Source: an uncultured Candidatus Rokubacteria bacterium
Lineage (GTDB): Bacteria; Methylomirabilota; Methylomirabilia; Rokubacteriales; CSP1-6
Length of the DNA: 64,000 nt
Assembly: GCA_963771355.1 (NCBI GenBank)
Contig: CAVYTA010000006.1
Coordinates: forward strand, 96,001 to 160,000
Direction: 5' to 3'
The notes beneath the pieces were generated by a model that ran no database searches, was not told where the DNA came from, and saw nothing but the letters and a program-made list of their open reading frames with translations. Below are positions 2,920-35,477 of this stretch, in pieces (position 1 is the first letter of the stretch; every line of letters starts with the position of its first letter). The translations under genes and the position numbers were made by a program.

Positions 2920-3210
2920 GGTGCGGCTCCTTGCCCCGCCGCGGCTCCTGAGCCTTCAGGACCTGCGTGCGCTTGCCGGGCGCCGCCACGCCTGAATGTG
3001 CGACGCCCCGTAAGGATGACGCACGCCAAGCCACCGTCGCGGCAAGCGCCGGCCGGCGATCAGTATCAGGTAGCCGACTAGATAGATCCCAAAGGACATT
3101 TGTCCCCTCCTAGACCGCCGACATGGAGCTGGTCGCCCGTTCTCTCTTCTTGCCCCGACGCGATCGATCGAGCATCGTGCGAAGGTGCGGCCGGTCGGGC
3201 AGGCCTAGAT

Positions 3211-4927: not shown

Positions 4928-6313
4928 CTATAGCCGAAGCGGAGGATCTTCAGCACCGATGTCGTGGTGGTCGTGGGCGGCAATCTTGAAGAAACGCTCG
5001 GCGTGGCTCGGGTGGACGGAGAGCTGGGTCGCGAGATCGCTCGCGGTGGCGCCGTTCCGGATCGCCAACGTCGCCATCTGGATGAGCTCGGCGCCCGCAT
5101 AGCTGATCATCTGGGCCCCCAGCAGCCGTTCCTGGGCGGCGTCGAACACCAGCTTGAGATACCCGTCGTCTTCCCCGGTGGCGCGGCCGTTCGAGGCCCC
5201 CCGTAGATCCTGGGTCGCGACGTGGCACTTCACGCCGCTGGCCGTTGCCGCCCGGTGGGTCAGGCCGACCCTGGCCACTTCCGGGGTGGTGAAGACGCTC
5301 TGAGGCACGAGCGTGGTGTCGGCGATCAGCTGGTCGCCCAGCAGCGCGTTGTGCGCCGCGAGACGGCCCTCGTACGCGGCCACCGGCGTGAGCTGCGCGT
5401 TGCCGGCGGCATCCCCGGCCGCGTAGATGTGGGCCACCGAGGTGCGGAGATAGGGCGTGACCGCGAGGCCCAGGCGCCCCCTCTCCAGCCCCAGGTGCTG
5501 AGCGCCCAGTGTTTCGGGCCGCCACCGGCGCCCGATGGCCACGCACGCCTGGTCCGCCGCCACCGCGTGAGGCTCGCCGTCTCTCGTGAACCGCGCGGTC
5601 ACGTCGCCTCGTCTTCCCGAGAAGCTCGTGAGCGTGGCGCCGAGGTGAAAGGTGACGCCGCGGCTCTCGAAGATCCTCCTGAGGTATCCGGCCACGTCGG
5701 GGTCGAACCCGGGGAGGATCTCGCCCTCCTGGCCGACGACCACGACCTCGGCTCCGAAGTCGCTGAACGCGCCCGCCATCTCCAGACCGATGACACCCGT
5801 CCCGACGATGACGAGACGTTGCGGGAAGACGGGCAGGAACAGGAGCTCGTCCGAGGTGATCGCCGCTTCGATGCCTGGCACCGCCGGAGCGACGGGGATG
5901 GATCCCGCGGCGATGATGATCCGGTCGCTCCGCAGGGTCGCGTCGTTCACCACGATGGTGTGCGGATCGGCGAACCTCGCTTCGCCGAGGATGATCTCGG
6001 CTCCCGGCCGCGCGAGCGCCGCCGGCAGCGGCTGGAACTCCTTGACGATGTCGTGCTGCCGGCGGATGACCGTCGGCCAGTCCAGGGCGATGGGGCCCGC
6101 CGTCGTGCCGAAGCGTGCTGCATCCTTCGTGATCCGGTGAATCCGCCCAGACCTTACCAAGGCCTTTTTCGGGATTCACCCCCAGTTGACGCACGTTCCG
6201 CCGAGCGGTCCCCGATCGACGAGAGCGACCCGCGCTGCGAGTGTAGCGGCCGCTTTCAATGCATTGATGCCCGCGGCCCCGCCTCCGATGATGACCAGGT
6301 CATAGCGATCCAA
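4928..6313 (-). CDS. Class-I pyridine nucleotide-disulfide oxidoreductase (LpdA/MerA/Gor-like) with in-frame UGA at codon 46; probable selenoprotein
   Basis: TTG start after GGAGG; MDRYDLVIIGGGAAG...GPLGGTCVNWG-TGA-IPKKAL continues in frame into ORF 4928..6160; GTGVIG NAD site, IYAAGD, HPSHAE; no C-terminal Cys-Cys. Confidence 0.85.
6141..6175 (-). promoter_or_regulatory. Putative bacterial SECIS element
   Basis: Immediately 3' of the UGA: AGGCCUU-GGU-AAGGUCU hairpin with apical loop at +18 to +20; lower AUCC/GGAU pairing possible. Confidence 0.65.
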
Positions 6314-6392
6314 GGCGATCCTCCCTCATGAGTTCGCCCGACGTTCGTCCGACCGTACGCGTCCCGATCGTAACGCGTCCGAGGCGCGCTCC

Positions 6393-6414
6393 AAGGTGGA
6401 CCAAGGTCCAATAG
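6393..6414. promoter_or_regulatory. Palindromic operator, copy 1 (consensus CTATTGGAC-N4-GTCCAATAG)
   Basis: AAGGTGGAC-CAAG-GTCCAATAG; centre 31.5 bp from TACGAT (minus strand, 6367-6372) upstream of the oxidoreductase. Confidence 0.7.
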
Positions 6415-6438
6415 GCGGTCCCGAGGGGGCGGACTAGC

Positions 6439-6750
6439 TGTGAAGTCCCAGGAGGTTCTCCACCCGGGCCATCTCTGCGACGTTGGTGGTTGCGAGTCGA
6501 CCATCACCGCAGAGCCGGAGGCCCGGATGGACATCCATAAGAATGCCCGGACGACGCCGCATAGTCGAGCGGCAATCGTCGTGCGGGTCACCCAGTTGGG
6601 CGAAAGCATCAAGGGTGTGGCGCGGGCGGTCGGTGTCTGCCCCAAGACGGTGCGCAAATGGTTGGCTCGGGCCGGCGAGGGCCTCAGCGACCGCTCCTCG
6701 CGACCGCAGCAGCTCCCGACCGCCACGCCAGCCGCACTGGTCGCGCACGT
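6439..6750 (+). mobile_element. IS481-family left end with truncated transposase N-terminus (ATG 6527)
   Basis: TGT end preceded by ACTAGC (NCTAGN target); MDIHKNARTTP..VARAVGVCPKTVRKWLAR..GLSDRSSRP is a typical IS481 N-terminus; breaks off near 6750. Confidence 0.85.
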
Positions 6751-7772
6751 CGCGCCGTCTTGGCGCGGAGCGCGATGAAGGCGCCGGGGCCCACCGCGCA
6801 GAGGAGGTCGACCTCCTCGAGCGCCTGACGGGCCACCTTGGTGTAAATCCCGTTGTTGCCGGGGTGATCGGAGATGGTGCCGAGGACGAGGATCTTGCGT
6901 GATGCCCGCGCGCTCCGCAGGAAGGCCAGGACCGGCGGGAGCGTGCCGAGCGAGGCCTTGAGATCGTCGCGAACAAAGGTTACCCCGTCCGCGAGCGCGA
7001 CGGGATTCATGCGGCCCTTGAAGGGCTCGACCTCACCGATCGCCCGGGCGGCATCGGACAGGGGAATGCCCATCTCGAGCCCGACCGCGACGGCGGCCAG
7101 TGCCGCCGAAACCCAGTGGGTGCCGCAGAGCTGGGTGCGCACCGGGGCCCGCTCGCCGGCATGGACGAGAGTGAAGGACAGACGGTCCGGCCAGGCGCCC
7201 GTCACGTGCTCGGCGCGAAGCTCCGCCGAGGGATCGAGGCCGAAGGTACGTACGCGGCCCGGGAACCCCTCGCGCATCGCGAGTACGCGCGGGTCGTCGG
7301 CATTGAGGATCGCGACGCCATCGGGGGGAAGAGCCCGGATGAGCTTGCCCTTCTCGGCGGCGATGGCGTCGAGCGAGCCAAACGCCGTGTAGTGATCGGT
7401 GGACACGCTGGTCACCACCCCGATGCGTGGCCGGAGCAAGGCAAGGGGCCGGTCGAGCGAGCCCGGCCCGATGTTCGCGCCGATCTCGACGACCCGGAAC
7501 TGGTCGCGGGTCCGGACGGAGAGCACGTTGCGCGCGATGTCGTGCGCATAGTTGCCGGATCCCCGTCCCACGTTGCCGCGCAGGCGCGTGGCGAGCACGG
7601 CGGCGAGCAGGTCCTTGGTGGTGGTCTTGCCCGCGCTGCCGGTCACCCCGATGAAGACCGTGCCGCGGAGCCTCGAGCGGTGGCCGCGCGCGACCTGCCA
7701 GTAGGCGAGCTGGTAGGCGGGGCGCAGGACTCGCCAGTACAACCCCGTGGCCAGCCGGACCGGAGACAGCAT
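6750..7772 (-). pseudogene. MurF-like Mur ligase, C-terminally truncated at the IS481 fragment
   Basis: IGVTGSAGKTTTKD, EKGKL, LNADDP, GRM, DD..A motifs; lacks the usual MurF N-terminal domain; the frame runs into IS sequence (ORF stop 6684). Confidence 0.7.
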
Positions 7773-7863
7773 CGTCCTTCTATTCTAGAGCAGCGATGCG
7801 GAGCGAGTCGAGACGGGAACCGGGGAAGGCGCGCTTTTTTGAGTAGCCGCCCAGAGGATGATG

Positions 7864-8441
7864 TTACTTGCCACCGAAGGCCGATTCGAGTTGGTGAATC
7901 ATGTCGGCCTCCGCGGCGGAAACCTTGCCGACTCCGAGGAGGCCCCCGCTCGCGCTCGCGATGGCCCGAGCGCGCTCGATCAGGTCGGAGCGCAGAGCCC
8001 GGACCTGCTCCGGGGTCATGTGCTCGCACAGGCCCTCGACCATGTGGATCCACGCCGAAAGCAGCTTCGGGTCAGGCCGCCGCTCGAGCCAGCTCTGCAG
8101 GAGGGAGTGGTCCGTCGAGCTCGGGGCGATGCCGGACTTCTCGGCGCGCTCGAGGATCTGCCGGCGCTCTCGATCGTCGATCGAACCGTCCGCCCACGCC
8201 ACCTCGACCAGGGGGACCAAGGCGAGCGCCGCCACGACCTCGGCCCGGATGCCGAGCTGGAACAGCTTGTCGAGGATGGCCTCGTTCTTGATCCCGGAGA
8301 CCTTCCCCGAGGGCCTCGCGAGAAGCCGCTTTGTCCTGGAGCTCCCGGAGCCGCGCGGTAAGCCGCTGATCCTCTTTACGGAAGAACTCATCCTCGAGCG
8401 TGCGGACCTTGTCCCCGAGGAATCTGCGGAGTCTCAGCCAT
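7864..8441 (-). CDS. TerB-like helical hypothetical protein with two apparent frameshifts (near 8425 and 8306)
   Basis: GGAGG RBS and ATG 8441; a second frame gives LEDEFFRKEDQRL..SREALG, which joins KVSGIKNE..LVPLVEVAWADGSIDDRER. Confidence 0.7.
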
Positions 8442-8553
8442 GGTGTCCTCCTGGGCGGCGGGGTGGGTAATGTGGGGTCATCATATCAGGAGGGCCACGC
8501 GACTACCTATCGAGCGTGTCGTCATCGCCGCCACGTCTGCCCTGGTCCCGACC

Positions 8554-8575
8554 CGGGTGGACCAAGGTCCAATAT
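8554..8575. promoter_or_regulatory. Palindromic operator, copy 2
   Basis: GGTGGACCAAGGTCCAATA (8556-8574) is a 19-bp exact match to 6395-6413; lies between divergent genes. Confidence 0.7.
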
Positions 8576-8640
8576 GATGCTGGACTATGGGTGCGTCAAA
8601 ATCGAAAGAGTCGCCGCCGGAAGTCATGGGAGGACCGTTC

Positions 8641-9174
8641 ATGCGGGTGTTCATCGTTGTGATGCTCTCATTCGCCTTGGCCGCGCCGGCGTACGGCCAG
8701 ATCCATGTCGACATCGGCATCCATCTGCCGGCGCCACCTCGGCTCGTCATCGTACCGGAAGTCCGAGCGGTCCAGTACGTACCATCCGCCCCCGCGAACC
8801 TCTTCTTCTACGACCGGCAGTACTGGGCCTTTGCCAACGGCGGCTGGCACGTGAGCCGCGGATACAACGGCCCCTGGATCGTCATCGCGCCGAACATCGT
8901 GCCTCGCCCCGTTCTGCTCGTGCCGGTGAACTACTACCACGTTCGTCCCGGCCACTGGAATCAATGGCAGCGGCAGCAGCCTCCCCGCTGGGGCAATGAG
9001 TGGGGACGCGAGTGGGCGGAGAAGCGACAGTGGCGGGAACGGCATGACGATCAAGATCGGGGCCGCGACCGGGATCACGATAAACGCGACAACAAGCGCG
9101 ATGACAAACGTGACGACAAGCGTGACGACCGGCGCGGTGAGAAGGGCAAGGGAGGCCACGGGCGGGGCAACTAG
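8641..9174 (+). CDS. Secreted Pro/Trp-rich hypothetical protein with charged low-complexity tail
   Basis: GGAGG RBS; signal peptide ending AAPAYG; LFFYD..YW...GGW..SR.YNGPW; C-terminal RDDK repeats. Confidence 0.75.
   Translation: MRVFIVVMLSFALAAPAYGQIHVDIGIHLPAPPRLVIVPEVRAVQYVPSAPANLFFYDRQYWAFANGGWHVSRGYNGPWIVIAPNIVPRPVLLVPVNYYHVRPGHWNQWQRQQPPRWGNEWGREWAEKRQWRERHDDQDRGRDRDHDKRDNKRDDKRDDKRDDRRGEKGKGGHGRGN
9082..9129 (+). repeat. 12-bp degenerate tandem repeat encoding (KRDx)n
   Basis: aaacgcgacaac aagcgcgatgac aaacgtgacgac aagcgtgacgac. Confidence 0.6.
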
Positions 9175-9226
9175 AGAGTGGCGTGACCGCGATGCGTGGT
9201 GTAACCCGAGCGGAAGAGAGGCCACG

Positions 9227-9385
9227 ATGGACAAATGCCAGGCGTGCGACAAGAGCTTGATCGAGGGAATGCATCGATTCTGCGGCGACGAGTGCCGTCG
9301 CCTCTTCGGAGAGGGACTCAGAAAGGGCACCGCCAGCCATCCTGGCCGCACGGTGGCTCGGCGGCGGCGCCGGCGGGGCGGCTGA
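9227..9385 (+). CDS. Small putative Zn-binding protein (52 aa)
   Basis: GAGAGG before ATG; MDKCQAC..HRFCGDEC (CxxC..FCxxxC); Arg-rich tail. Confidence 0.45.
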   Translation: MDKCQACDKSLIEGMHRFCGDECRRLFGEGLRKGTASHPGRTVARRRRRRGG

Positions 9386-9389
9386 ATCC

Positions 9390-9860
9390 TTGACCCTCGC
9401 GAACGCGATCGATGAGCTGGCGGACGCCGGCTTCGTCGAGCACTTTGGCGTGCGCGATGGTGCGCTGCGATCATTCGACAGCGGAAGGCGATTCAGCGCT
9501 CTTGAGCTGGTGATCCGGGAATACCATCGCTTCGAGGGGGTCTCGGATCCGGACGACATGTCGATCGTCTATGCGATCGAAGGTCAAGGTGGTGTTCGCG
9601 GAACGCTGGTCGATGCCTACGGGGCCTACTCCGACGCAGCGGTGAGCGCCTTCCTCCAGGGCGTGCCGATTCGGGGAACTTCCCGGTTCGGCGGAGGGGC
9701 GGGGGGGCGACCGTGGGTATTCGACCGGCCGGGCAAGATCCGTGGGCGGAATCCAGTGCGCCAGCCGTCACCGCTCGGGAGCTACCACCATGGCTTCCCG
9801 GTGCCGGTCACGAAGGATCCGTGGCACGACGAAGGGGGCGAGAGCGGCTCGACCCCTTAG
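9390..9860 (+). CDS. Conserved hypothetical protein of the RFEGxSDPDD family
   Basis: EYHRFEGVSDPDDMSIVYAIE..G.RGTLVDAYG motif. Confidence 0.7.
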   Translation: MTLANAIDELADAGFVEHFGVRDGALRSFDSGRRFSALELVIREYHRFEGVSDPDDMSIVYAIEGQGGVRGTLVDAYGAYSDAAVSAFLQGVPIRGTSRFGGGAGGRPWVFDRPGKIRGRNPVRQPSPLGSYHHGFPVPVTKDPWHDEGGESGSTP

Positions 9861-10114
9861 ACGCGCGCGGTCCGTCCCAGGGTCGCCAGATAGGCGGTCA
9901 GCAGGACGAGCGAGCCGATGATCGCCATGACGAACCCGACCGGATCGCCGTCCCCGTACCAGCCGATCAGGCGACCCAGGAAGCCGCCCGTGAGCGCCCC
10001 CACGATTCCGAGCAGGGACGTGATGAACAAGCCGCCTGGATCGCGCCTCAGCCTCAAGAACTTGGCGGCGACGCCGGCGACCAGACCCAGGACGATCCAT
10101 CCCAAAATATACAT
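9857..10114 (-). CDS. GlsB/YeaQ/YmgE family stress-response membrane protein
   Basis: ILGWIVLGLVAGVAAK..DPGG..LLGIVGALTGGFLG..AIIGSLVLL; GGGGAG RBS. Confidence 0.88.
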   Translation of the reverse strand: MYILGWIVLGLVAGVAAKFLRLRRDPGGLFITSLLGIVGALTGGFLGRLIGWYGDGDPVGFVMAIIGSLVLLTAYLATLGRTARV

Positions 10115-10199
10115 CCGGTACTCCCCCCTCACTGTCTGCCACTCAACGAGAGAGCGCGGTGCTCTTGGTCATCACGCTAGCAGGGGGTGGGAGGGCCGC

Positions 10200-10258
10200 C
10201 TAGTGGACGTTGGTCCAATAGCGATCGCGCGCCGCGCCATTGGACCATGGTCGTAGGG
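10200..10258. promoter_or_regulatory. Palindromic operator, copies 3 and 4
   Basis: CTAGTGGAC-GTTG-GTCCAATAG (10200-10221) and CCATTGGAC-CATG-GTCGTAGGG (10237-10258) between the divergent GlsB-like and kinase genes. Confidence 0.7.
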
Positions 10259-10303
10259 GTTGGCATTGCCGCAGGGTCCGGACCGGGCTATAGTCGCCAG
10301 TAG

Positions 10304-12712
10304 ATGTTGCGTTTGATGTCGGTCCCCGAGCGCGCACGCCCGGGCCGCAGAGTGCTTCTTCTGGCTCTCCTCGCGCTCCTCTGCTGTGCTTCCTCGAGTC
10401 CCGCGCGCGACGCGAAACGGGCGAGAATCGTGGTGCTCCTGTTTCCGGAGGCGCGACTGCTGCCGGAGATCCTTGCCGTGGAGGGCGCGATTCGCCCGAC
10501 CCTCGACCCGGAAGGAGCGGTCAACTTCTACACCGAGTATCTGGACCTCTCCCGGCTGTCGGATGCGCAGGATGAGCAACAGATGATCGCCTTTCTGCGC
10601 GAGAAGTATGCGAGTCGGCAGGTCGACCTGATCATGCCGGTCGCGTTTCCGACCCTGCGCTTCTTTCTGAAACACCGCGCGGCGCTCTTTCCCGGGGTGC
10701 CGGCCGTCTTCTGCGCGGCGAACCTGGATGCGGTCGCGGGGCTCGAGCTCGGGTCCGCCATCACGGGGGTCCGACTCCCTTCGGAGTGGGGGTCGACGCT
10801 GGAGGCCGCGCTCGCGCTCCAGCCGGCGACGCGGCGGGCGGTGGTGATCACGGGAACCTCGGAGATCGACCAGAACTTGCAAGCAGCGGCCGCTCACGAT
10901 CTCGCCCGATACGGCACTCGGATCGAGGTCGCGTATCTGGCGGGCCTGCCGATCGCGCGTCTGCTCGAGGAAGTGGCCGTCTTGCCGAAGGACAGCATCG
11001 TGTTGTTCGTGTCGCTGCTTCGGGACCAGGCGGGACGTCTGTTCACCGACCCGGAAGCGGTCTCCCTGATCGCCCGCGCCTCGAGTGTGCCGGTGTACAG
11101 CTGGTCGGAGACCCATCTCGGCCATGGGATCGTGGGCGGGCGCCTGGCCAGCTTCGAGACCCAGGGGACCCGGGCGGCCGAGCTCGCGGTGCGGGTGCTC
11201 CGCGGAGAGCGACCGGAGACGCTTCCCGTCGTCGACGGCGGCAAGACGGCGTACATGTTCGACGATCGGGAGCTGCGGCGGTGGGGTCTCAGCGCCAGCC
11301 GGCTACCGGCCGGCAGCATCGTGCGATACGAGGAGGTCTCGCTGTGGTCTCTGTACCGATGGAACATCGTCGGCGCGGGAGCCCTGGTCGCCGCGTTGGC
11401 GCTCCTCAGCGCGGGGCTGCTGGTCGAGCGCACGGGCCGGAGGCGCGCGGAGCTCTCGCTCGGCGAGCGCCTTCGCTTCGAGACGCTGCTGGCGGAGCAG
11501 GCCGCCACGTTCAGCCGGGTCTCCGGGACCGACGTCGATCGAGAGATCGAGCGGGCGCTTCGACGGATCGCGGACTTTCTTGCCGTGGACTGGAGCGGTT
11601 TGACGGAGTACTCCGAGGACAGCCAGACGGCGCGGGTCACGCACTGGTGGATGGCCGAGGGGATGGATCCGCCCCCGGTGGCACTTGGATTCGACGAGAT
11701 TCCGTGGAGCGTGACCCAGCTGCGACAGGGAGAGACGGTGAGGTTCACGCAGATCGAGGAGCTGCCCGAGAGTGAAGCGGCGGTGGACCGGCAGACCTAT
11801 CGTCGGTTAGGGGTCAAGTCGCAGGTCGCGATCCCGTTGACCGTAGAGGGGACGGTGGTCGGGGCCCTCGCGTTCAGCGCGGTGGCGACCGAGCGTACCT
11901 GGCGGGACGAGTTCGTCCAGCGCCTCCAGCTTCTCGGCGAGGTCTTCGCCAATACCTTGTCGCGTCGACGAGCGGAGATGGAAGGCGAACGACTCCGGCA
12001 GGATCTCGCTCACGTCGGGCGCGTCGCCACGGTAGGGGAGCTGACCACCTCGCTCGCGCACGAGCTCACCCAGCCCCTGACGGCGATCCTGGCCAATGCC
12101 CAGGCCGCTCGGCGCATCCTCGAGTCTGATGGGCCCGATCTCGCGGAGCTCCGCGCGATCGTGGGGGATATCGTCGATGACGACAAGCGCGCGAGTGAGG
12201 TGATCAACCGGCTACGGGGCTTCCTCAAAAAGGGCACCCTCGAGCGTTCGAGCGTGGACATGGGTGATCTGGTCGGGCAGATGGCAAGGCTGGTGGCCGG
12301 CGATGCCGTCCTCCGAAACGTGGTCACCCGGCTGGAGCTGGCCCCTGACCTCCCTCTCGTGCATGGGGACCGAGTACAGCTTCAGCAGGTCGTTCTGAAC
12401 CTGATCCTCAACGGATTGGACGCGATGCGGGATGGGAAGCCGATGAACCGCACGCTCGTGCTTCGAACGGCTCGCGGGGATGGGGGCTCCGTCGAGGTGA
12501 CGGTCCAGGATTCTGGGGCCGGCATCGAGAAGGCCGATCTCGACAACATCTTCGAGGCCTTCTACACGACCAAGGCCGATGGGCTGGGGATGGGACTGGC
12601 GATCGTCCGCTCCATTGTTGAGGCACACGGAGGCCGGGTGGGAGCCCGGAACAACCCCGAGGGGGGGGCCTCGTTCTCGTTCACGCTGCCTGCCGTCACC
12701 GAAGCGCCCTGA
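10304..12712 (+). CDS. Sensor histidine kinase (periplasmic ABC-binding-like domain, TM, GAF, HisKA, HATPase), NodV/FixL-like
   Basis: SLAHELTQPL H-box, QQVVLNLILNG N-box, DSGAG, FEAFYTTK..GLGMGL. Confidence 0.92.
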   Translation: MLRLMSVPERARPGRRVLLLALLALLCCASSSPARDAKRARIVVLLFPEARLLPEILAVEGAIRPTLDPEGAVNFYTEYLDLSRLSDAQDEQQMIAFLREKYASRQVDLIMPVAFPTLRFFLKHRAALFPGVPAVFCAANLDAVAGLELGSAITGVRLPSEWGSTLEAALALQPATRRAVVITGTSEIDQNLQAAAAHDLARYGTRIEVAYLAGLPIARLLEEVAVLPKDSIVLFVSLLRDQAGRLFTDPEAVSLIARASSVPVYSWSETHLGHGIVGGRLASFETQGTRAAELAVRVLRGERPETLPVVDGGKTAYMFDDRELRRWGLSASRLPAGSIVRYEEVSLWSLYRWNIVGAGALVAALALLSAGLLVERTGRRRAELSLGERLRFETLLAEQAATFSRVSGTDVDREIERALRRIADFLAVDWSGLTEYSEDSQTARVTHWWMAEGMDPPPVALGFDEIPWSVTQLRQGETVRFTQIEELPESEAAVDRQTYRRLGVKSQVAIPLTVEGTVVGALAFSAVATERTWRDEFVQRLQLLGEVFANTLSRRRAEMEGERLRQDLAHVGRVATVGELTTSLAHELTQPLTAILANAQAARRILESDGPDLAELRAIVGDIVDDDKRASEVINRLRGFLKKGTLERSSVDMGDLVGQMARLVAGDAVLRNVVTRLELAPDLPLVHGDRVQLQQVVLNLILNGLDAMRDGKPMNRTLVLRTARGDGGSVEVTVQDSGAGIEKADLDNIFEAFYTTKADGLGMGLAIVRSIVEAHGGRVGARNNPEGGASFSFTLPAVTEAP

Positions 12713-12728
12713 TCGACTCGCGGCCTGG

Positions 12729-12750
12729 CTATGGGACGAAAGGCCAATAG
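12729..12750. promoter_or_regulatory. Palindromic operator, copy 5
   Basis: CTATGGGAC-GAAA-GGCCAATAG; centre 31.5 bp from TAGAGT (12771-12776). Confidence 0.65.
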
Positions 12751-12795
12751 CCCTGGACCCGCGCGCCCACTAGAGTAGAGGGGAGGAGGATACCG

Positions 12796-13539
12796 ATGCT
12801 CGATCACATGTGGCTTGCCCCGCTCGTTGCCCTGGCGCTCACCCAGATCGCCGCCATCGCGACCTCCGTCTACCTGCACCGGGGACTCGCGCACCGAGCG
12901 TTACGGTTGCATCCGGTCACGGACGGGTGTTTTCGCGCCCTGCTCTGGCTCACGACGGGTCAGAGCCGCCGGGAGTGGGTCGCCGTGCATCGGAAGCATC
13001 ACACCTTCACCGACCGGGCGGGCGACCCCCACAGTCCTCAGGTATTTGGCTTCTGGAATATCCAGTTCTGGAACGTTTTCTATTACATGCGGGAAGCGCG
13101 GAACCCCGAGACGCTTCGAACGTTTGCCCCGGATATCACCGAGGACTGGCTGGATCGGACGGTGTTTTCCTGGGGGCTGGGCGGCCTCGCGCTCGGCATC
13201 GCGCTGCTCTGCCTGGTGTTTGGAGTCTGGGTCGGGCTCGCCGCCGGACTGGTGCACGCGATCCTGTATGTCTTCGTGCTGGCTCCGCTCATCAACGGCC
13301 TGGGTCACTGGCGGGGGGCGAAGAACTTCGACAACACCGCCTTCAATTCCAGGACCCTCGCCTGGTTGACGGGCGGCGAGAGTCTCCACAACAATCATCA
13401 CGCCCACCCGCGCGCGCCGAAGTTCAGCATGCGACGGTTCGAGTTCGATCCCTCGTGGGTCGTGATCCGCTGTCTCGCCGCGGTTGGGCTGGTGGAGATC
13501 GTCGGCGCGCCGGTGAAGCTTACCGGCGCTTCGACCTGA
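12796..13539 (+). CDS. Membrane fatty acid (delta-9-like) desaturase
   Basis: Three His boxes HRGLAH, HRKHH, HNNHH; GGAGGA RBS. Confidence 0.92.
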   Translation: MLDHMWLAPLVALALTQIAAIATSVYLHRGLAHRALRLHPVTDGCFRALLWLTTGQSRREWVAVHRKHHTFTDRAGDPHSPQVFGFWNIQFWNVFYYMREARNPETLRTFAPDITEDWLDRTVFSWGLGGLALGIALLCLVFGVWVGLAAGLVHAILYVFVLAPLINGLGHWRGAKNFDNTAFNSRTLAWLTGGESLHNNHHAHPRAPKFSMRRFEFDPSWVVIRCLAAVGLVEIVGAPVKLTGAST

Positions 13540-13681: not shown

Positions 13682-14545
13682 ATGCCGACCAAGAATTCCA
13701 GCCTTGCCCACGTCCTCGCGACGCTCCGTGCCCAGCTGGAGATCGTCCGCGCCAGCGAGGCCGGCACCCGGGCGGGCCGGGACCCCGAGGACCTGCACAA
13801 GATGCGGGTCGCGGTCCGCCGTCTCCGGGCCATTCTCCGGGCGAGCCGGCCGCTGTTCGACGCGAAGTGGGTGAAGGGGCTTCGGAGCGAGCTGGACTGG
13901 CTCGGGACCGCGCTGGGAGTGGCGCGGGACCTCGACGTGCTTCGGGGATACCTGGGCTCGGAGCTCGCCTCCCTCGAGCGGGCCGAGCAGAAGGCGGGCC
14001 AGAGGCTGCTCCGTCGGCTCGATGCCGACCGCGCCCGGGCCAGGGGGGCCCTGCGTGAGGTCCTCGCTGGCCCGCGATACGCCAAGCTCCTGGCCCGCCT
14101 GAAGGCGTCTTTCGCCGCCCCCCCCGTCAGCTCAATGGAGGTCTCGCTTCCCGGCAGTGCCGCCGCCGAGTTCAAGAAGCTTCGCCGGGCGGTCAAGGGG
14201 CTCCCCGGCCACCCGAGTGCCGACGACCTCCACGAGGTCCGGATCAAGGTGAAGCGGGCGCGGTACGCCGCCGAGCTGGTGGAGGCCGCGGGTAGTCGGG
14301 GCACACGGTTCCTGGATCAGGCGAAGACGGTTCAAGACATTCTTGGAGAACACCAGGACGCCGTGGTACTCGAAGAGTATCTACACGAAGTCATCGGCAG
14401 CCGAGAGGCCAAGCATGCGCTCGAGCAGCAGCTTCTCAAACGGCAGCGCAAGCGTCGAAAGAAGACGCGCGCCGCGTTTTTCGAGGAGTGGCCGAGGCTC
14501 GAGCGCCGTGGCCGGAAGGCATGGAGCGCTGCTCCCGTGCCATAG
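13682..14545 (+). CDS. CHAD domain (polyphosphate-binding) protein
   Basis: LHKMRVAVRRLR, LG.ARDLDV, LHEVRIKVKRARY, QDILGEHQD. Confidence 0.93.
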   Translation: MPTKNSSLAHVLATLRAQLEIVRASEAGTRAGRDPEDLHKMRVAVRRLRAILRASRPLFDAKWVKGLRSELDWLGTALGVARDLDVLRGYLGSELASLERAEQKAGQRLLRRLDADRARARGALREVLAGPRYAKLLARLKASFAAPPVSSMEVSLPGSAAAEFKKLRRAVKGLPGHPSADDLHEVRIKVKRARYAAELVEAAGSRGTRFLDQAKTVQDILGEHQDAVVLEEYLHEVIGSREAKHALEQQLLKRQRKRRKKTRAAFFEEWPRLERRGRKAWSAAPVP

Positions 14546-14551
14546 CGCCTC

Positions 14552-15049
14552 GTGAACCTCCTGCTGATTCGCCACGCCCCCGCCGTTCCCAACGGAAACG
14601 GCGGCACCCGTGATCACGACCGTCCTCTCACGCGAAAAGGCCGGACCCGCTTCCGGCAAGCGGCCCGAGGGCTGGCCCGGATCGCGGGGCGACCTGACGT
14701 CCTGCTGACGAGCCCTCTCGCCCGTGCCCGCGCAACTGCTGACATCGCCGCGGCCGCCTTCAAGCGGGTGACCCCGAAGATCGAGCCCGCGCTCGGGCAG
14801 GACGACGTCGACGTGCTGGTGACCGCGCTGAAGAAGTACGGTCCTGACGCGACGGTTGCGCTGGTCGGGCACGAGCCCACGCTCTCAGGCCTCCTGGCTC
14901 ACCTGCTCGGCATGCACCAGGGGGACGACCGCTTCGCCTTCAAGAAAGGCGGCGCGGCCCTGGTCCACCTGCCGGACGGACCCTCGATCCCCGGTCAGCT
15001 CAGGTGGTTTGTAAAGCCGCGAATTTTAAGGTCTCTAGGCTCCCACTAG
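14552..15049 (+). CDS. sixA: SixA-type phosphohistidine phosphatase
   Basis: LIRHA, RPLT.KG, SPL.RA..TA, LVGHEP, FKKGG. Confidence 0.88.
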   Translation: MNLLLIRHAPAVPNGNGGTRDHDRPLTRKGRTRFRQAARGLARIAGRPDVLLTSPLARARATADIAAAAFKRVTPKIEPALGQDDVDVLVTALKKYGPDATVALVGHEPTLSGLLAHLLGMHQGDDRFAFKKGGAALVHLPDGPSIPGQLRWFVKPRILRSLGSH

Positions 15050-15115
15050 CTCAGCCCGCCTGGCCGTCGGGACCCATGCTACTCTGAGGTCCTTTCCTTG
15101 TGAGGTAGTCAGCCT

Positions 15116-16090
15116 GTGGCACTAACAAACGGAGCCGGCTTGCGCGGTAGCCCCACCTCGGACCTGGTCGCCATCGTCGATCTGGGCTCAACCGCCGTCC
15201 GATTTCTTCTCGCGCAGATCCGCCCGAGCTCGGGGTTCCGCATCCTCGCCCAGGAGCGGGTGCCGACCCGGCTCGGAGGTGGCGCGCCCGGGACACTGCC
15301 CAGACGGGCCATCGCCAAGACCCTGCGAGCCGTGCATCGCTTCTTCGCCCGCTACTCGCCCCATGGGCAAGGGCCGCGCGTCGTCGCCATCGCGACCTCG
15401 GCGGTCCGGGATGCACGCAATCCCGAGCGACTCCTCGATCCCCTGCGGCGGAACGAGGGCATCGAGGTGCAGGTGCTCAGCGGGCGGGAGGAGGCACGCC
15501 TGGGGGTCATGGCGGCCCTCGAAAGCCTACCCTTCACCAATGGCGTCGTGGCGGACCTGGGGGGAGCGAGCCTGCAGCTCAGTCGGGTGCGCCACCGCCG
15601 CGTGGTCTCGAGCGCCAGCCTGCCGCTGGGGTCGGTCCGGACCACCCGTAACTTCCTGAAACACGATCCACCCACCCCGCGAGAGGTGCGCGAGCTCCGC
15701 ACCGAGATCCGGGAGCGGCTCCGGACCGCCATGCCGCCCGCCAATCACGGCGAGATCCTGGTCGGCATGGGGGGAACGGTTCGCACCCTTGCCAGCATGC
15801 ACCTGCGCGCCAACCCGGGGGAGCGCAAGCACCGGCACGGGCTCGTGCTGCAGCAGTCGGATGTCACCGCCATTCGCGAGCGGCTGGAGGCCCTGTCCTT
15901 TCGGGGGCGGCGCAAGATCCGGGGACTGAAGGCCGAGCGCGCCGACATCATTCTGGCCGGCGCCATGGTCATCGAGGATGTGATGGTCAGCGGAGGGTAT
16001 CTCCGTCTCGTGGTCTGCACCCGGGGAGTGCGGGACGGGTTGCTTCTCCACGAGGCCACCAGGAAAAGGAACTCACATGGGCTCCGATAA
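15116..16090 (+). CDS. ppx: Ppx/GppA family exopolyphosphatase, short form without C-terminal HD domain
   Basis: DLGS, ATSAVRDARN, LSG.EEA, DLGGAS, GMGGT, RADII.AG, GVRDG. Confidence 0.85.
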   Translation: MALTNGAGLRGSPTSDLVAIVDLGSTAVRFLLAQIRPSSGFRILAQERVPTRLGGGAPGTLPRRAIAKTLRAVHRFFARYSPHGQGPRVVAIATSAVRDARNPERLLDPLRRNEGIEVQVLSGREEARLGVMAALESLPFTNGVVADLGGASLQLSRVRHRRVVSSASLPLGSVRTTRNFLKHDPPTPREVRELRTEIRERLRTAMPPANHGEILVGMGGTVRTLASMHLRANPGERKHRHGLVLQQSDVTAIRERLEALSFRGRRKIRGLKAERADIILAGAMVIEDVMVSGGYLRLVVCTRGVRDGLLLHEATRKRNSHGLR

Positions 16091-18155
16091 ATTCGTGAAC
16101 CGGGAACTGTCGTGGCTGGAATTCAACCGGCGTGTCCTCGAAGAGGCGCAGGACCCGAGCGTGCCGCTCCTGGAGCGACTCAAGTTCCTCTCGATCTTCA
16201 GCTCGAACCTGGACGAGTTTTTCATGGTCCGCGTGGCCGCGCTGAAGCGGCGCATCCATGCCGGGGAGCAGACCTCGACCCCCGACGGGCTCACCCCGCT
16301 GCAGACGATGGTGGGGGTGTCGGCCCGGGTGCACGAGCTCGTCGACGCCCAGCACCGCTCATTCCTCCAGGATATCCAGCCGCTCCTCGCCCGCGAGGGA
16401 ATCCTGCTCCTGCGTCCAAAGGAGATCACCGAGGAGCAGCGGCGATTCCTTGAGGACTATTTCCGCCGCATGCTCCTCCCGGTGGTGACCCCGCTCGCGG
16501 TGGACCCGGGGCATCCCTTCCCGTATCTCGGCAACCGCTCGCTGTGCCTGGTGGCGTCGATGCGCCCGTCGGCGCCGTCCGGCTTCCCGCACAGCCAGCT
16601 CTCGATCATCCACATCCCGAGCCAGGCGCTGCCGCGATTCATCGCGCTCCCCGACCCGGACGGCAAGCGCGCGTTCATGCTCCTCGAGGACGTGATTCGT
16701 CTGCACCTGCCGACCATCTACAACGGCTACGACATCGTCTCGAGCCACGCGATTCGAGTCACCCGAGACGCCGATCTCCCCGACCTGCCGACCCGGCCCT
16801 CGGACCTCCTGAGCGGCATCGAGCGGAGCCTGCGCGAGCGTCGGCTGGGAGACGCGGTGCGCCTGCAGCACGACGGCGATCTCCCGCCGGAGATCCTGGC
16901 CCTGCTGCTCGATGAGCTGGAGCTGCAGGCCGACGACGTCTACGAGGGCGCGGGCTTCGCCGCTTTCTCGGATCTCCTGCAGCTCTACTCCGCGCTCGAG
17001 ATCCCGCGTCTCAAGGACCCGCCGCGACCGCCGCACCCGGTGGCCGCGCTGGAGAGCACCTCCGATATCTGGGGCGCCATCCGGGAGCGCGACATCCTCG
17101 TGCACCATCCGTATCAGAGCTTCGACAGCGTCACCCGGTTCGTGCAGGAGGCCTCCAGCGATCCGAAGGTGCTGGCCATCAAGATGACGCTCTACCGGGT
17201 CAGTCCCGCGTCGCCGATCGCGCACGCCTTGCAGACCGCGGTGGAGAACGGCAAGGAGGTGGCGGTGCTCGTCGAGCTGCAGGCCCGATTCGACGAGGAG
17301 GCGAACATCCGCTGGGCCCGCGCGCTCGAGGAAGTGGGCGCCCACGTGGTGTACGGCTTCCCCGGATTCAAGACGCACTGCAAGGCGTGTCTGGTCGTCC
17401 GGCAGGAGTCGGACGGCATCCGGCGGTACTGCCACCTCGCCACCGGGAACTACAATGTCCGGACCGCGGGGGTCTATAGCGACGTGGGGCTCTTCACCGG
17501 CCGGCGCCAGTTCGGCGAGGACCTGACCCAGCTCTTCAACCTCCTCACCGGCTACACGCGCCCGACCGGGTTCCACCACCTCATCCTCGCGCCCACCACG
17601 ATGCGTGACGCGTTCGTGGAACGGATCCGCCGCGAGGCGGAGCATGCCCGGGCGGGCCGCCCGGCGCGCATCATCGCCAAGATGAACGCCCTGGTCGACC
17701 GGAGCCTGATCGAGGAGCTGTACGCGGCGAGCGCGGCCGGGGTGCAGATCGATCTTCTCGTCCGCGGCATCTGCTGCCTGCGCCCGGAGGTCCCGAATCT
17801 CTCGGAGAACATCCGCGTCGTCTCGATCGTGGACCGGTATCTCGAGCACTCGCGCATCTACTGCTTCGAGAACGCCGGGCAGCCTGAGTACCTGCTGGCC
17901 TCGGCGGACTGGATGCCCCGCAACCTCGACCGGCGGGTGGAGGTAGCCTTCCCAGTCCTGGACCCAGCCCTGCACCGGCAGATCCGCGAGATCCTCGAGA
18001 CCCAGCTCGCCGACACGGCGAAGGCGCGCCGCATTCTCCCCGACGGTACCTCGGAGCGCGTCCGGTCGAACGGCCGCCCCGCCCTGCGCTCCCAGGAGCG
18101 TCTCTACGAGCTGATCGGGAACGGAGGCACCGGCGCGGAGGCCCCCGAGCGCTGA
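16077..18155 (+). CDS. ppk1: Polyphosphate kinase 1
   Basis: NRELSWLEFNRRVL, SNLDEFFMVRVA, HHPYQSF, ARFDEEANI, KTHCK, SADWMPRNLDRRVE. Confidence 0.97.
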   Translation: MGSDKFVNRELSWLEFNRRVLEEAQDPSVPLLERLKFLSIFSSNLDEFFMVRVAALKRRIHAGEQTSTPDGLTPLQTMVGVSARVHELVDAQHRSFLQDIQPLLAREGILLLRPKEITEEQRRFLEDYFRRMLLPVVTPLAVDPGHPFPYLGNRSLCLVASMRPSAPSGFPHSQLSIIHIPSQALPRFIALPDPDGKRAFMLLEDVIRLHLPTIYNGYDIVSSHAIRVTRDADLPDLPTRPSDLLSGIERSLRERRLGDAVRLQHDGDLPPEILALLLDELELQADDVYEGAGFAAFSDLLQLYSALEIPRLKDPPRPPHPVAALESTSDIWGAIRERDILVHHPYQSFDSVTRFVQEASSDPKVLAIKMTLYRVSPASPIAHALQTAVENGKEVAVLVELQARFDEEANIRWARALEEVGAHVVYGFPGFKTHCKACLVVRQESDGIRRYCHLATGNYNVRTAGVYSDVGLFTGRRQFGEDLTQLFNLLTGYTRPTGFHHLILAPTTMRDAFVERIRREAEHARAGRPARIIAKMNALVDRSLIEELYAASAAGVQIDLLVRGICCLRPEVPNLSENIRVVSIVDRYLEHSRIYCFENAGQPEYLLASADWMPRNLDRRVEVAFPVLDPALHRQIREILETQLADTAKARRILPDGTSERVRSNGRPALRSQERLYELIGNGGTGAEAPER

Positions 18156-20320: not shown

Positions 20321-21330
20321 TCAATGCCGCCGGCGGCCCGGGCGGGCCGGGGCGGGGAGCAGACCATGGTGCCGGCGCCAGCCGGCCGGCGGCATGCCGG
20401 CCGCCTTCTTGAAAGCCCGACTAAACGCCGCTTCGGAGTCGTAACCGACATCGAGTGCCACCGCGGACACCTTGGCAACACCGTCGGCCAGTCGGCGCGC
20501 CGCCAGCTGCATCCTCCAGCGGGTCAGGTACTGCATCGGCGGCTGGCCCACGAACTGAGTGAAGCGCTCCGCCAGCGCCGAGCGTGACAACCCGACCTCC
20601 CGCGCCAGACCTCGAAGCGTCCACGCCTGGGCCGGCCGCTCGTGGAGGAGACCCAGCGCGCGTCCGACCATCCCGTCACGCAGGCCGGCGAGCCACCCCG
20701 ACTGCTCGCCGGTCAGCGTGCCGAGGTGCCGCCGCACCACCTCGACGAACATCAGCTCGCTCAGCCGGAGCCGGATGCACTCGCCGCCCGCGCGCCGCTC
20801 ACTCGACTCCGCGATGGTGAGGGCGATCAGCTGCCGCAGCGAGTCGTCCGCCGCCGACCGGTGAACGTGGAGGAGGCGGGGGAGCGTGCCGAGCAGGGGA
20901 TTGAACGGGCGGACGTCGCAGCCGAGGAACCCGCACACGAGATGAAGCGGCTCCGGGCCGCCGCCGCCCTCGACCACCACGAAGGGAAGCTGGCCGGCGG
21001 ACATCTTCTTCATGAAGTCCAGGACCTCGGCCGCGTCCGGACCCGCGCCGGTAGCCACGTCGATGGACATGACGTAGGATCACCGTGTGGGAACACGAGG
21101 ACATCGCCGGTCTCGATCCGCGTCGGCACGCCGCCGGCGATGCGGCCCCAGCACGAGCCCCGGGTCACCACGTGATAGGAGATGACGTGCTGGGCCCGCG
21201 GCAATATGGCCGGGGCCAGCGCGGCGCCGTCCGGCACCGCGATCTCCCAGGGTGACGACGCCTCGACGAGGAAGTAGAGCGCGCCGGTCAGCCGCACCGT
21301 CCGGAGCACGTCGGAAAGCACGTCCGGGGG
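20321..21330 (-). CDS. AraC family regulator with cupin_6 N-domain, frameshifted near 21077
   Basis: DVLSDVLRTVRLTGA..YHVVTRGSCW..VFPHGD in one frame, then YVMS..W.L..LAREVGLSRS..VGYDSEAAFSRAFK in another; start uncertain. Confidence 0.85.
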
Positions 21331-21506
21331 CGGTGTTCCCGGCGGGGCGGACTCTCGAGCAAGGGCGCCGGACGATCGGGTAGCCCGCGCGCGCGTCCCG
21401 GATGGCGCGACATGCGATCCGGACGCTCGATCATGGCGGCGCGGCACGCTCCGATCATACACTGCGCCTCGACGAGTGCAGCGCCCCCACGACACCAGGA
21501 GGCGGT

Positions 21507-25000: not shown

Positions 25001-25654
25001 TTACCCATGCAACAGGACATTGAGGAGGGAACTGTGAATGTGCAGGCCGCCGTTGTACTCGATGAAGCCGAGCTTCCTGAATTTATTCATGAACCCACTG
25101 ATCCGCGGCCGGGTGGTGCCGACCATCTCCGCCAGGACTTCCTGACTGATCTTGGCAATGACCGGCTCGGTCTTTCCTTCCTTGCCAAAGCGCGCCAGCA
25201 ACAGGAGTACCCGGGCCAACCGCTTCTCGCTCGAGTTGAACAGCTGATCGACCAGGTCTTCCTCAAAGCGCACATTGCGGGCCAGCAGGTGCGCCATGAA
25301 GCGCTCGGAGAATATCGACTTCTCGTGGAGGAGTCTCATCATGACTCGCTTGTCGATGCGCACCACCGACGCGTCGGTCATCACCGACGCGGTGGCCATG
25401 CGAACGGGCTGACCGGCGAGACACCCTTCGCCAAAGAAGTCACCGCGTCCGAGCATGGCCACCACCGCCGATTTTCCCCGTTCAGAGACGACCGTGAGCT
25501 TGATCTGTCCTCGGTCGATGTAGAACACGGCGTCTGCGGGGTCCCCTTGGGTGAAGACCACTTGCTTCTTCCGGTACGTGGAAATCGATCGGCCGGTGCG
25601 GGTCTTCGTCAGGAACGCCTTCGAGTCGAACTCAGCGGTCGGCTTTCGGCCCAT
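25001..25654 (-). CDS. Crp/Fnr family transcriptional regulator
   Basis: FTQGDPAD, GDFFGEGCL, LFNSSEKRLAR, SQE.LAEMVGTTR HTH. Confidence 0.93.
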   Translation of the reverse strand: MGRKPTAEFDSKAFLTKTRTGRSISTYRKKQVVFTQGDPADAVFYIDRGQIKLTVVSERGKSAVVAMLGRGDFFGEGCLAGQPVRMATASVMTDASVVRIDKRVMMRLLHEKSIFSERFMAHLLARNVRFEEDLVDQLFNSSEKRLARVLLLLARFGKEGKTEPVIAKISQEVLAEMVGTTRPRISGFMNKFRKLGFIEYNGGLHIHSSLLNVLLHG

Positions 25655-27998: not shown

Positions 27999-29084
27999 CT
28001 ACTTCCGGGTCGCTCGCCGCTCCAGCAGTCGGAGGACGGCGGCTTCTTCCTGGCTGAGGCCGGCCGACTCCCGGCCGGTGACGCCGATCTCGAGGCCGCC
28101 GTCCACGTGGGCGGCGACCACGTCTGGGTGGATGTAGCACTTCCGGCAGATCGTCGGCGTGTTGCCGAGCCGGGCCGCCACCGCGACCACGGCCGCGGTG
28201 AGGCGGCGGCGGGTATCGCCGCCGTCGGGGTCCGGGGTGGCCAGTGCGAGGGCGGCGAGCACGGTACCGCCCCAGGTGCGGAAGTCCTTGGCGGTGAACT
28301 CCTCGCCGGCGATCCCGCGCAGGTAGTCGTTGACGTCCGCCGAGTCGATCGCCTGCCGCTGCCCGGCCTCGTCGAGGTACTGAAAGAGCTCGTGGCCGGG
28401 CAGATCCTGGCAGCGCCGTACCACGCCGGCGAGCCGGCGGTCGCTCACGTCGACGGTGTGGCGCTTGCCGCCCTTGCCGCGGAACTCGAAGCGCAGCCGC
28501 GCGCCCGCCACGGTGACGTGCCGGGCGCGGAGCGTGGTGAGGCCGTACGAGCGGTTCTCGCGCGCGTACTCCGCGTTGCCGACGCGAATGAGGGTCGTCT
28601 CGAGGAGGCGGACCACGCCGGCCAGCACCTTCTCGCGCGGCAGCCCGGGGAGGGCCAGGTCCCGCTCCACGCGCTCGCGGATCGCCGGCAGCGCGCGCCC
28701 GAACTCGATGACTCGGTCGAACTTGGCCTCGTCGCGCACGGCCCGCCAGCGCGCGTGATACCGGTACTGCTTCCGGCCGCGCGCGTCGCGGCCCACCGCC
28801 TGGATATGCCCGTGGGCCACGGGACAGATCCACACCTCGGCCCACGCCGGTGGGATCGCCAGGCTCCGGATTCGCCGCAGGGTGGGGAGGTCGCTCACCG
28901 GGTGCCCGTCGACGCCGAGGTAGCGGAACGCGCGCCCGTGGCGAATCCGCTGGAGTCCCGGGCGCGCGTCGGAGACATAACGGAGCTGGGCGGCATCCGC
29001 TGCCACCCCGGCATCGAGCGCGATGCGGCGCATCCGTGGCCGGCGGCGAGTCTTCGGAGCGGCTGGAACCAGCGCCAAAGCCAT
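27999..29084 (-). CDS. DNA topoisomerase IB (bacterial, poxvirus-like)
   Basis: IPPAW..VWIC..GHIQA.GRDARGRKQYRYH, IRVGN, FRGKGGK, TAKDFRTW, LGNTP.ICRKCYIHP (catalytic Tyr). Confidence 0.95.
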   Translation of the reverse strand: MALALVPAAPKTRRRPRMRRIALDAGVAADAAQLRYVSDARPGLQRIRHGRAFRYLGVDGHPVSDLPTLRRIRSLAIPPAWAEVWICPVAHGHIQAVGRDARGRKQYRYHARWRAVRDEAKFDRVIEFGRALPAIRERVERDLALPGLPREKVLAGVVRLLETTLIRVGNAEYARENRSYGLTTLRARHVTVAGARLRFEFRGKGGKRHTVDVSDRRLAGVVRRCQDLPGHELFQYLDEAGQRQAIDSADVNDYLRGIAGEEFTAKDFRTWGGTVLAALALATPDPDGGDTRRRLTAAVVAVAARLGNTPTICRKCYIHPDVVAAHVDGGLEIGVTGRESAGLSQEEAAVLRLLERRATRK

Positions 29085-33349: not shown

Positions 33350-33448
33350 ATGATCTGGGAAGCGCCGGACTTCATCGAAGTGAAGATGGACGCCGAGATC
33401 AACTCCTACCAGGACGATTTCGAGCGCGAGTCGGACGACCGCTTCTAG
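33350..33448 (+). CDS. pqqA: PQQ precursor peptide PqqA (32 aa; absent from the ORF track)
   Basis: GGAGGTG RBS; MIWEAPDFIEVKMDAEINSYQDDFERESDDRF with W..P.F leader and E-x3-Y core, directly upstream of pqqB. Confidence 0.9.
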   Translation: MIWEAPDFIEVKMDAEINSYQDDFERESDDRF

Positions 33449-33517
33449 CCGGCCGCTCCGGCTTTCGATCAGCCCCCACCCGGCCGACGGCTGGGTTCGG
33501 GGGCTGTCGCGTCTCTC

Positions 33518-34438
33518 ATGCATATTCAGGTGCTGGGTTCGGCGGCGGGCGGCGGTTTCCCGCAGTGGAACTGCGGCTGTCCGAACTGTCGGGGCGTCCG
33601 CGCCGGCACGATTGCCGCGACGCCGCGCACACAGGAATCGGTCGCGGTCAGCGCGGATGGCGCCGGGTGGTTCCTCCTGAACGCTTCCCCGGAGATCCGG
33701 CAGCAGATCGAGAGCTTCCCCGGCATACACCCCCGCGCGGCGCGCCACTCCCCGATCCACGCCATCCTCCTCACCAACGGCGATCTGGACCACACCCTCG
33801 GCCTCCTGTCGCTACGCGAATCCCATCCGCTGGTGGTGTATGCGACCGAGCACGTCCGCCGCGGCTTCACCGACGGCAATGTCCTCTACCGGACCCTTCA
33901 GCGCTTTCCCGAGCAGGTCACCTGGCGTCCGCTCAAGCTGGGGCGGGAAGAGGCGCTGGCGGGCGCGGACGGGCGCGAGCGCGGGCTCGTCGTGGAAGCC
34001 GTGCCGGTGCCGGGCAAGCTGCCGATTCATCTGGAGCGCCACTGCGCGCCCGATCCCGAGGACAATATCGGCCTCCGCATCCGCGAGGTGTCCACCGGGC
34101 GCCGGCTGGCTTACTTTCCCGCCGCCGGCGCCCTCACCGCGACGGTGCGCGAGGCGCTGGGCGATGCCGACTGCGTCTTCTTCGACGGCACGTTCTGGTC
34201 GCCGGATGAGCTGCCCGCGCAGGGTCTCGGCACCAAGCGCGCGGACGACATGGCCCATCTGCCCATGGGGGGCGGCGAGGGCAGCCTGGCCGCCCTCCGC
34301 GAGCTCCGGGCCTCGCGCCGCGTCTACATCCACGTGAACAACACGAACCCCGTGCTGCGGGACGATGCGCCGGAGCGGAAGGACGCCGAGGCGGCCGGCT
34401 GGGAGATCGCCTGGGACGGCATGGAGGTGCGCCTGTGA
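33518..34438 (+). CDS. pqqB: PQQ biosynthesis protein B
   Basis: VLGSAAGGGFPQWNCGCPNC, RTQES.AVS, NASP.IRQQI, FFDGTFW, HVNNTNP. Confidence 0.97.
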   Translation: MHIQVLGSAAGGGFPQWNCGCPNCRGVRAGTIAATPRTQESVAVSADGAGWFLLNASPEIRQQIESFPGIHPRAARHSPIHAILLTNGDLDHTLGLLSLRESHPLVVYATEHVRRGFTDGNVLYRTLQRFPEQVTWRPLKLGREEALAGADGRERGLVVEAVPVPGKLPIHLERHCAPDPEDNIGLRIREVSTGRRLAYFPAAGALTATVREALGDADCVFFDGTFWSPDELPAQGLGTKRADDMAHLPMGGGEGSLAALRELRASRRVYIHVNNTNPVLRDDAPERKDAEAAGWEIAWDGMEVRL

Positions 34439-35202: not shown

Positions 35203-35477
35203 TCTCCGCGGAGAGCCGGCTTCGCCTGGCCGCCAAGGCCCGCCTCCGGTTCGACCGCAAGTCGTCGCGCTACATGCTGCTCTATCCCGAGCGGGGGCTG
35301 GTGCTGAATCCCACCGCCGCCGACGTGCTCCAGCGCTGCGATGGGGAGCGCACCGTCGCCTCCATCGTGATCGAGCTCGCCCAGCGGTACGGGCACGAGG
35401 CACCCGCGGTGGAGCGCGAGGTGCTGGAGTTCCTGCAGGGCATGGCCGACCGCGGCCTGGTGCAGGCGACGCCGTGA
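35199..35477 (+). CDS. pqqD: PqqD peptide chaperone (RRE)
   Basis: GTG start in GTGA overlap; RLRFDR...LLYPERGLVLNPTAADVL..CDG.RTV. Confidence 0.93.
   Translation: MISAESRLRLAAKARLRFDRKSSRYMLLYPERGLVLNPTAADVLQRCDGERTVASIVIELAQRYGHEAPAVEREVLEFLQGMADRGLVQATP

Follow-up and report, generated by a model that had tools for sequence, protein, structure and literature searches.

Fifty intergenic, promoter-linked palindromes in a Rokubacteria genome and their predicted FixJ/StyR-type regulator

We describe a palindromic DNA box found in a 64,000-nucleotide stretch (the window) of an uncultured Candidatus Rokubacteria genome (assembly GCA_963771355.1, contig CAVYTA010000006.1, positions 96,001 to 160,000). 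Five copies lie there beside the genes of an orphan sensor kinase, a fatty-acid desaturase, a GlsB-like membrane protein, a secreted protein and a selenocysteine (Sec)-containing oxidoreductase. These repeats are part of a genome-wide set of 50 intergenic, promoter-linked palindromes on six contigs of the 5.5-Mb genome; the regulon is thus not the local one of the original prediction. It is highly probable, on the combined evidence of motif, spacing and gene neighbourhood, that the boxes are sites of a FixJ/StyR-subfamily response regulator, a protein that the window kinase would phosphorylate and that would act as a promoter activator from about -43.5.

The box and its promoters

All five copies are intergenic and lie where they were first reported. 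The repeats are real and exceed chance, but the 22-bp palindrome by which they had been described has to be corrected: the copies carry 4, 4, 1, 5 and 2 mismatches to the quoted 22-mer, no perfect 22-mer exists in the genome, and only two of the five window copies are recovered at three mismatches or fewer. The genome matrix gives the consensus ATAGGAC-CWWG-GTCCTAT, a palindrome of 18 bp whose central 4 bp, earlier taken for a free N4 spacer, are conserved as CWWG.

An untrained regular-expression pattern found 18 seeds in the genome, 17 of them intergenic, where intergenic DNA makes up 12.5% of the genome by our own gene caller. An iterated matrix gave 52 genome matches of at least 14 bits, 50 of them intergenic, a share that is inflated because the matrix was iterated on intergenic matches; eight column-permuted control matrices gave 0-12 matches each, 0-2 of them intergenic. 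The bare core GGAC-N4-GTCC is not enriched (107 occurrences versus 94-247 for other spacers); GGAC-N4-GTCCWAT is (18 versus 0-3). With a matrix trained solely on 14 seeds from elsewhere in the genome, the five copies score 17-23 bits and nothing else in the window exceeds 8.3. Furthermore, a matrix from 45 outside sites finds five real window matches of at least 15 bits, against a mean of 0.07 and a maximum of 1 in 100 Markov-3 simulations.

The boxes are also tied to promoters. Of 100 site-directions, 21, belonging to 20 sites, have a TAnnnT hexamer at 31.5 bp (12) or 32.5 bp (9) from the box centre, where about 0.7 would be expected; this spacing puts the box centre near -43.5/-44.5, abutting the -35 element (starts being inferred from the -10 hexamers). 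Sites of other genomes (n=84) add 29 such spacings, 18 in relatives and 11 in other phyla. The spacings reported for the five copies (31.5, 32.5, 31.5, 41.5 and 31.5 bp) are exact. The suggested activator position near -43 is likewise supported, but the name 'class II' applies only loosely, as NarL at yeaR/ogt contacts the C-terminal domain of the alpha subunit (alphaCTD), not sigma4, in the structure described in PMC10853779. Palindromic, intergenic, present in many copies with mostly unrelated flanks, and abutting -35, the box has the properties expected of an activator site of the NarL/FixJ family.

A candidate regulator and its kinase

Six proteins of the genome match the GerE-type helix-turn-helix (HTH). 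Only three are FixJ-type proteins with a receiver (REC) and a LuxR-type HTH; all three carry the recognition helix EKT[VI]K[VI]HR and are flanked by boxes. None of the six is a LOV-HTH protein, and the candidate binders are REC-HTH proteins. The binder is likely, from this co-occurrence, to be a response regulator of the FixJ/StyR subfamily whose helix reads E-K-T-V/I-K-x-H-R, in line with the LuxR/NarL-type binder first proposed. Among 80 GTDB regulator loci from across the phyla, a box of at least 15 bits lies near 10 of the 17 with an E[KRQ]T-x-K-x-H-R-like helix and near none of the 63 others, an association that is not independent because the helix class was defined after the locus data had been seen and largely follows the tree. 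In the bacterium's own order 26 of 29 regulator loci, one of them from this genome, have a box at the same threshold. Among 40 relatives, at least three exact pattern matches occur in 15 of 17 genomes with the regulator and in 1 of 23 without it, the regulator search having scored 75 candidates per genome; in the lone exception (G012) the kinase lies near a contig end.

The closest solved full-length relative of the regulator is StyR (1YIO; E 3e-59), whose helix is E-V-T. Full-length homology and a NodV-type kinase partner are as in the StyR/TodT/NodW subfamily; the score of 212 lies below the FixJ equivalog cut-off of 255. The top plasmid matches were E-I/V-T regulators and no cultured host was found that way; five of their loci held no box of at least 15 bits, with one match of 13.8 bits.

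An independent anchor for the pairing of helix and box is EL222 of Erythrobacter litoralis (PDB 3P7N, 8A5R), because its HTH recognition helix, SEKTVKMHRGLVM, is the same as that of the candidate regulators and its published consensus matches the box. This consensus, RGNCYWWRGNCY, quoted second-hand from PMC10521638 and PMC4428443, fits the 12-bp core: 25 of the 50 sites match exactly and 46 within one mismatch. EL222 is reported to activate once its site takes the place of the lux box beside -35 (PMC5001607). However, in EL222 a LOV input is fused to the HTH, whereas the candidate input here is a phosphorylated receiver, and the EL222 operator C120 is without the outer AT(A/T) flanks that are conserved in the box.

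In a domain scan the window kinase showed an N-terminal periplasmic domain, GAF, HisKA and HATPase domains and no PAS domain. The model of the periplasmic domain (predicted local distance difference test, pLDDT, 89) is structurally closest to the type-I solute-binding proteins CD0873, 3LKV and Trp-bound 3LFT (E ~1e-12, template-modelling score ~0.7, 16-18% identity), and the model suggests that a small molecule is the likely input. Kinase homologues of relatives sit directly before an EKT regulator, and two genomes (G005 and G007) keep the intact order kinase-regulator-box-receiver-box-desaturase. Here the middle of this module is missing from the window, and contig C5 carries regulator, box and receiver as a unit with no kinase. 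The C5 regulator (C5:188166-188795) is likely the partner of the window kinase, because, of 13 kinase-regulator pairs picked by hand, 12 have a regulator that resembles the C5 protein most (54-64% versus 44-55%); the original suggestion of an unlinked FixJ/NodW-type partner thus gains a candidate. Cross-talk with the two same-helix regulators on contig C7 is probable.

The closest full-length kinase homologues (L138 and L139, at G001:C88 and G004:C115) are followed by a box and a receiver only, with no HTH regulator; judged by gene order, loss of the regulator gene is recurrent. A third kinase of the family, with PAS domains (G000:C7:108266-116386), is interrupted by a frameshift near 108636; its neighbours are tRNA-Sec, selA and selB.

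The genes behind the boxes include those for single-domain receivers, DUF3300-DUF2950, YMGG zipper, Ysc84-like, BON, META, OmpA, MlaC and DUF308 proteins, an OprD porin, an aquaporin, a resistance-nodulation-division (RND) efflux system with transketolase, tal-gnd-zwf, SulP-PPK2 and ATP sulfurylase. DUF3300/DUF2950 proteins are described as uncharacterised, secreted and symbiosis-induced (PMC4653623). For a conserved lipoprotein target of 130 amino acids the Atlas returned no family. Box-linked genes in other phyla include those for a bicupin, a sulfatase, RND efflux and a sigma factor. Two boxes belong to a frdCAB (cytochrome b type)-aspA-dcuA/B-DASS-formate dehydrogenase operon (G000:C4:302790-312251), which suggests aspartate/fumarate respiration in the lineage.

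We propose that the kinase would bind a small extracytoplasmic solute through its binding-protein domain and then phosphorylate the regulator. A regulator dimer would dock against the -35 region and recruit sigma70 RNA polymerase, in the manner of NarL at yeaR and of EL222 at an engineered luxI promoter. The genes so induced would be those of the single-domain receivers, which likely serve as feedback sinks, of small secreted and envelope proteins and of the desaturase, as well as the fumarate/aspartate respiration and pentose-phosphate operons. Envelope remodelling under acid or low-oxygen type stress is a tentative reading of the physiology, with the balance somewhat against it.

Alternative readings, related systems and meaning

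Several points weigh against the proposed regulon. Besides the inflated intergenic share, the helix class drawn up after the fact and the limit of 75 candidates scored per genome in the regulator search, the canonical TAnnnT spacing is absent at 30 of the 50 sites and 7 of the 17 helix-positive loci have no site. The EL222 operator C120 scores only 4 bits on our matrix, so the flanks of the two sites differ. Target membership is labile as well. Of 23 other desaturase loci, 3 have a box upstream, as do 2 of 20 homologous GlsB-like loci, 1 of 13 loci homologous to the secreted protein gene at 8641 and none of six Sec orthologues (only two of those six genomes have the regulatory system). The desaturase of G002, the closest orthologue (87% identical), has no box.

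It is very unlikely that another factor (CRP/FNR, AraC or an extracytoplasmic function sigma factor) reads the box and that the FixJ-type genes are merely its targets. The window does hold a CRP/FNR gene (25001-25654) and AraC genes, and a master regulator would also explain boxes at regulator genes; however, CRP/FNR sites are centred at -41.5. The spacing found here fits the -43.5/-44.5 of NarL (PMC10853779) rather than that position. Furthermore, the box goes with a single type of HTH helix in different phyla, and a consensus that agrees with it has been measured for an HTH of this type. The idea that the copies are what is left of a mobile repeat, or that they mark integration sites, can be given next to no weight, although copies 1 and 2 do have 19 bp in common, as first noted (6395-6413 and 8556-8574), copy 1 abuts an IS481 end, 15 of the 50 sites fall within 62 kb of C7 (around two FixJ-type regulator genes) and one pair of sites (C6:11327 and C7:213742) has common flanks. 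Otherwise the sites, copies 1 and 2 included, have different flanks, their degeneracy is position-specific, the -10 spacing is fixed, and both degeneracy and spacing recur in other phyla; nor do the boxes show the homologous flanks and target duplications of miniature inverted-repeat transposable elements or repetitive extragenic palindromes.

A DosR-like or FixLJ-like oxygen regulon with direct heme sensing concerns the signal and would be compatible with the FixJ/StyR-type binder. The fumarate operon with its two boxes, the GAF domain of the window kinase and the PAS domains of the frameshifted kinase speak for it; even so, we consider it distinctly unlikely. The sensor domain of the window kinase is periplasmic, the protein lacks the heme-PAS of FixL and its score of 188 is far below the FixL cut-off of 850, and the regulator likewise falls short of FixJ, which tells against FixL-like oxygen sensing. 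The box resembles the DosR box. DosR itself is a weak HTH match (E 5e-5), and a DosR-type regulon is argued against because no Usp or Hsp20 family was found among the 151 of 202 called neighbouring proteins that were scanned; neither a DosR-clade regulator nor Usp/HspX targets appeared in these comparisons, and membership of a DosR regulon is not supported.

FixL/FixJ and DosS/DosR belong to the same NarL/FixJ superfamily as the system proposed here, but the FixJ helix is R-T-V/I-E and the FixJ and FxkR motifs given in PMC4999443 differ from the box; the DosR residues that contact bases are named in PMC4082495. StyS/StyR, TodS/TodT and NodV/NodW are closer, with the same kinase subfamily and kinase-regulator-receiver layout. 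However, StyR and NodW have E-V/I-T where the candidates have E-K-T, loci of E-I/V/A-T regulators are without a box (no box at any of the 63 GTDB loci of non-EKT type, nor at 15 bits in the five plasmid loci), the kinase senses through another kind of input domain, and the regulon here is large, in contrast to one catabolic operon. At yeaR/ogt in E. coli, NarL likewise binds as a LuxR-type HTH dimer directly before -35, with its centre at -43.5/-44.5 (PMC10853779); its site and its regulator clade are different.

The mechanism would be ordinary and of textbook kind; the regulon and the regulator clade are apparently undescribed. A literature search, mostly outside subscription papers, found no description of the box in a two-component regulon. 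The prediction offers a testable regulon for an uncultured soil lineage and would tie uncharacterised secreted families (DUF3300/DUF2950, YMGG glycine zippers, Ysc84-like) to one regulator. As a recognition-helix signature is linked to a DNA box measured for EL222, the regulon may be predictable in other phyla, and natural promoters with the right spacing might improve EL222-based optogenetic activation. A wider view, which we hold to be unlikely, is that several kinases, each with its own input, and several EKT-helix regulators converge on the EL222-type box in an undescribed cross-phylum signalling network of soil and sediment bacteria. In Rokubacteria and other groups it would serve as the general switch for low-oxygen/acid and envelope stress, controlling fumarate respiration, the selenoenzyme and DUF3300/DUF2950-type secreted proteins, with EL222 as a light-rewired offshoot.

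The five copies in the window

The features of the window that bear on the copies are as follows.

4928-6313, minus strand: class-I flavin disulfide reductase, MerA/glutathione-reductase-like, CxxxxU, with the Sec TGA at 6178-6176
6367-6372, minus strand: -10-like hexamer TACGAT upstream of the Sec gene, 31.5 bp from the copy-1 centre, with TTGGAG 16 bp before
6393-6414, unstranded: box copy 1, perfect half facing the plus strand, weaker half facing the Sec-oxidoreductase
6433/6439-6778, plus strand: truncated IS481-family element (PF13011, E 7e-12), left end following ACTAGC in the +31.5 hexamer position of copy 1
8554-8575, unstranded: box copy 2, between a DUF533-like gene (minus strand) and the secreted protein gene (plus strand)
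8571-8599, minus strand: predicted sigma70 promoter TTGACG-17-CATATT, -10 overlapping copy 2 (repressor geometry)
8641-9174, plus strand: secreted hypothetical protein of 177 amino acids, possible copy-2 target via CAAAAT (8597-8602)
9857-10114, minus strand: GlsB/YeaQ/YmgE-like membrane protein (PF04226), likely copy-3 target via TAGCGT (10179-10174)
10200-10221, unstranded: box copy 3
10237-10258, unstranded: box copy 4, 41.5 bp from the kinase -10 and 68.5 bp from the GlsB -10
10266-10294, plus strand: predicted kinase promoter TTGCCG-17-TATAGT
10304-12712, plus strand: orphan sensor kinase (type-I periplasmic binding-protein fold, membrane helix, GAF, HisKA, HATPase)
12729-12750, unstranded: box copy 5, with TAGAGT at 12771-12776
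12796-13539, plus strand: DesA-like fatty-acid desaturase, downstream of copy 5

The desaturase behind copy 5 is likely a target, as first proposed, and is the best supported of the genes next to the five copies. The GlsB-like gene is a likely target of copy 3, from which its spacing is canonical. Autoregulation of the kinase through copy 4 is plausible but atypical: the kinase promoter has its own -35 and the box, at about -53.5, is one helical turn further out than the canonical position. A canonical 31.5/32.5-bp box does precede the kinase gene in one verrucomicrobial and one alphaproteobacterial locus. At copy 2 the non-canonical CAAAAT overlaps the -35 of the divergent promoter, and because the box overlaps the -10 of that promoter, copy 2 may repress rather than activate. 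Four soil or rhizosphere metatranscriptome runs, available as contigs only, hold short near-identical pieces over the kinase, desaturase and GlsB genes, from which neither starts nor levels can be read.

Toward the plus strand, copy 1 has TAGC at 31.5 bp, followed immediately by the left end of the IS481-family element. The boundary is fixed by a paralogue on C5 (G000:C5 ~165300-166390), its transposase split across frames, which retains both ends and a 6-bp CCTAGC duplication; the insertion point is the CTAG within the -10 hexamer position. Because its perfect half faces this broken promoter, copy 1 probably once served a gene that has since been cut away.

By its TGA, hairpin and Sel machinery, the reductase on the other side qualifies as a real bacterial selenoprotein. 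The in-frame TGA at the catalytic Cys is kept in all six relatives that cover the site, the DNA after it is strongly conserved and forms predicted hairpins of -13.5 to -18.3 kcal/mol (calculated without a shuffle control), and tRNA-Sec, selA and selB are present in the genome. The selenoprotein was not found in the seven same-genus genomes searched and is present in six other genera of the family. Its co-control by the box, part of the original prediction, is doubtful, although not by much: TACGAT stands at 31.5 bp and two-sided sites exist (C7:221269), but the half facing the gene lacks the T present in 19 of 21 promoter-proximal halves, and its orthologues, as noted above, are without boxes.

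A weak sixth match (3089-3110; 8-9.5 bits), intergenic and beside another likely IS remnant, was excluded from the set. Directly after the desaturase lies a polyphosphate cluster with CHAD, SixA-like, Ppx/GppA-like and ppk1-like genes (13682-18155); CHAD follows the desaturase in G002 too. Elsewhere in the window, and unboxed, are a topoisomerase IB-like gene (27999-29033), a pqqABCDE-like operon (33350-36643) and a large catalase gene (39190-41421), all named from their translations. An AraC/Cupin_6 regulator gene (20321-21500), divergent from a methyltransferase gene, is apparently split across two frames.

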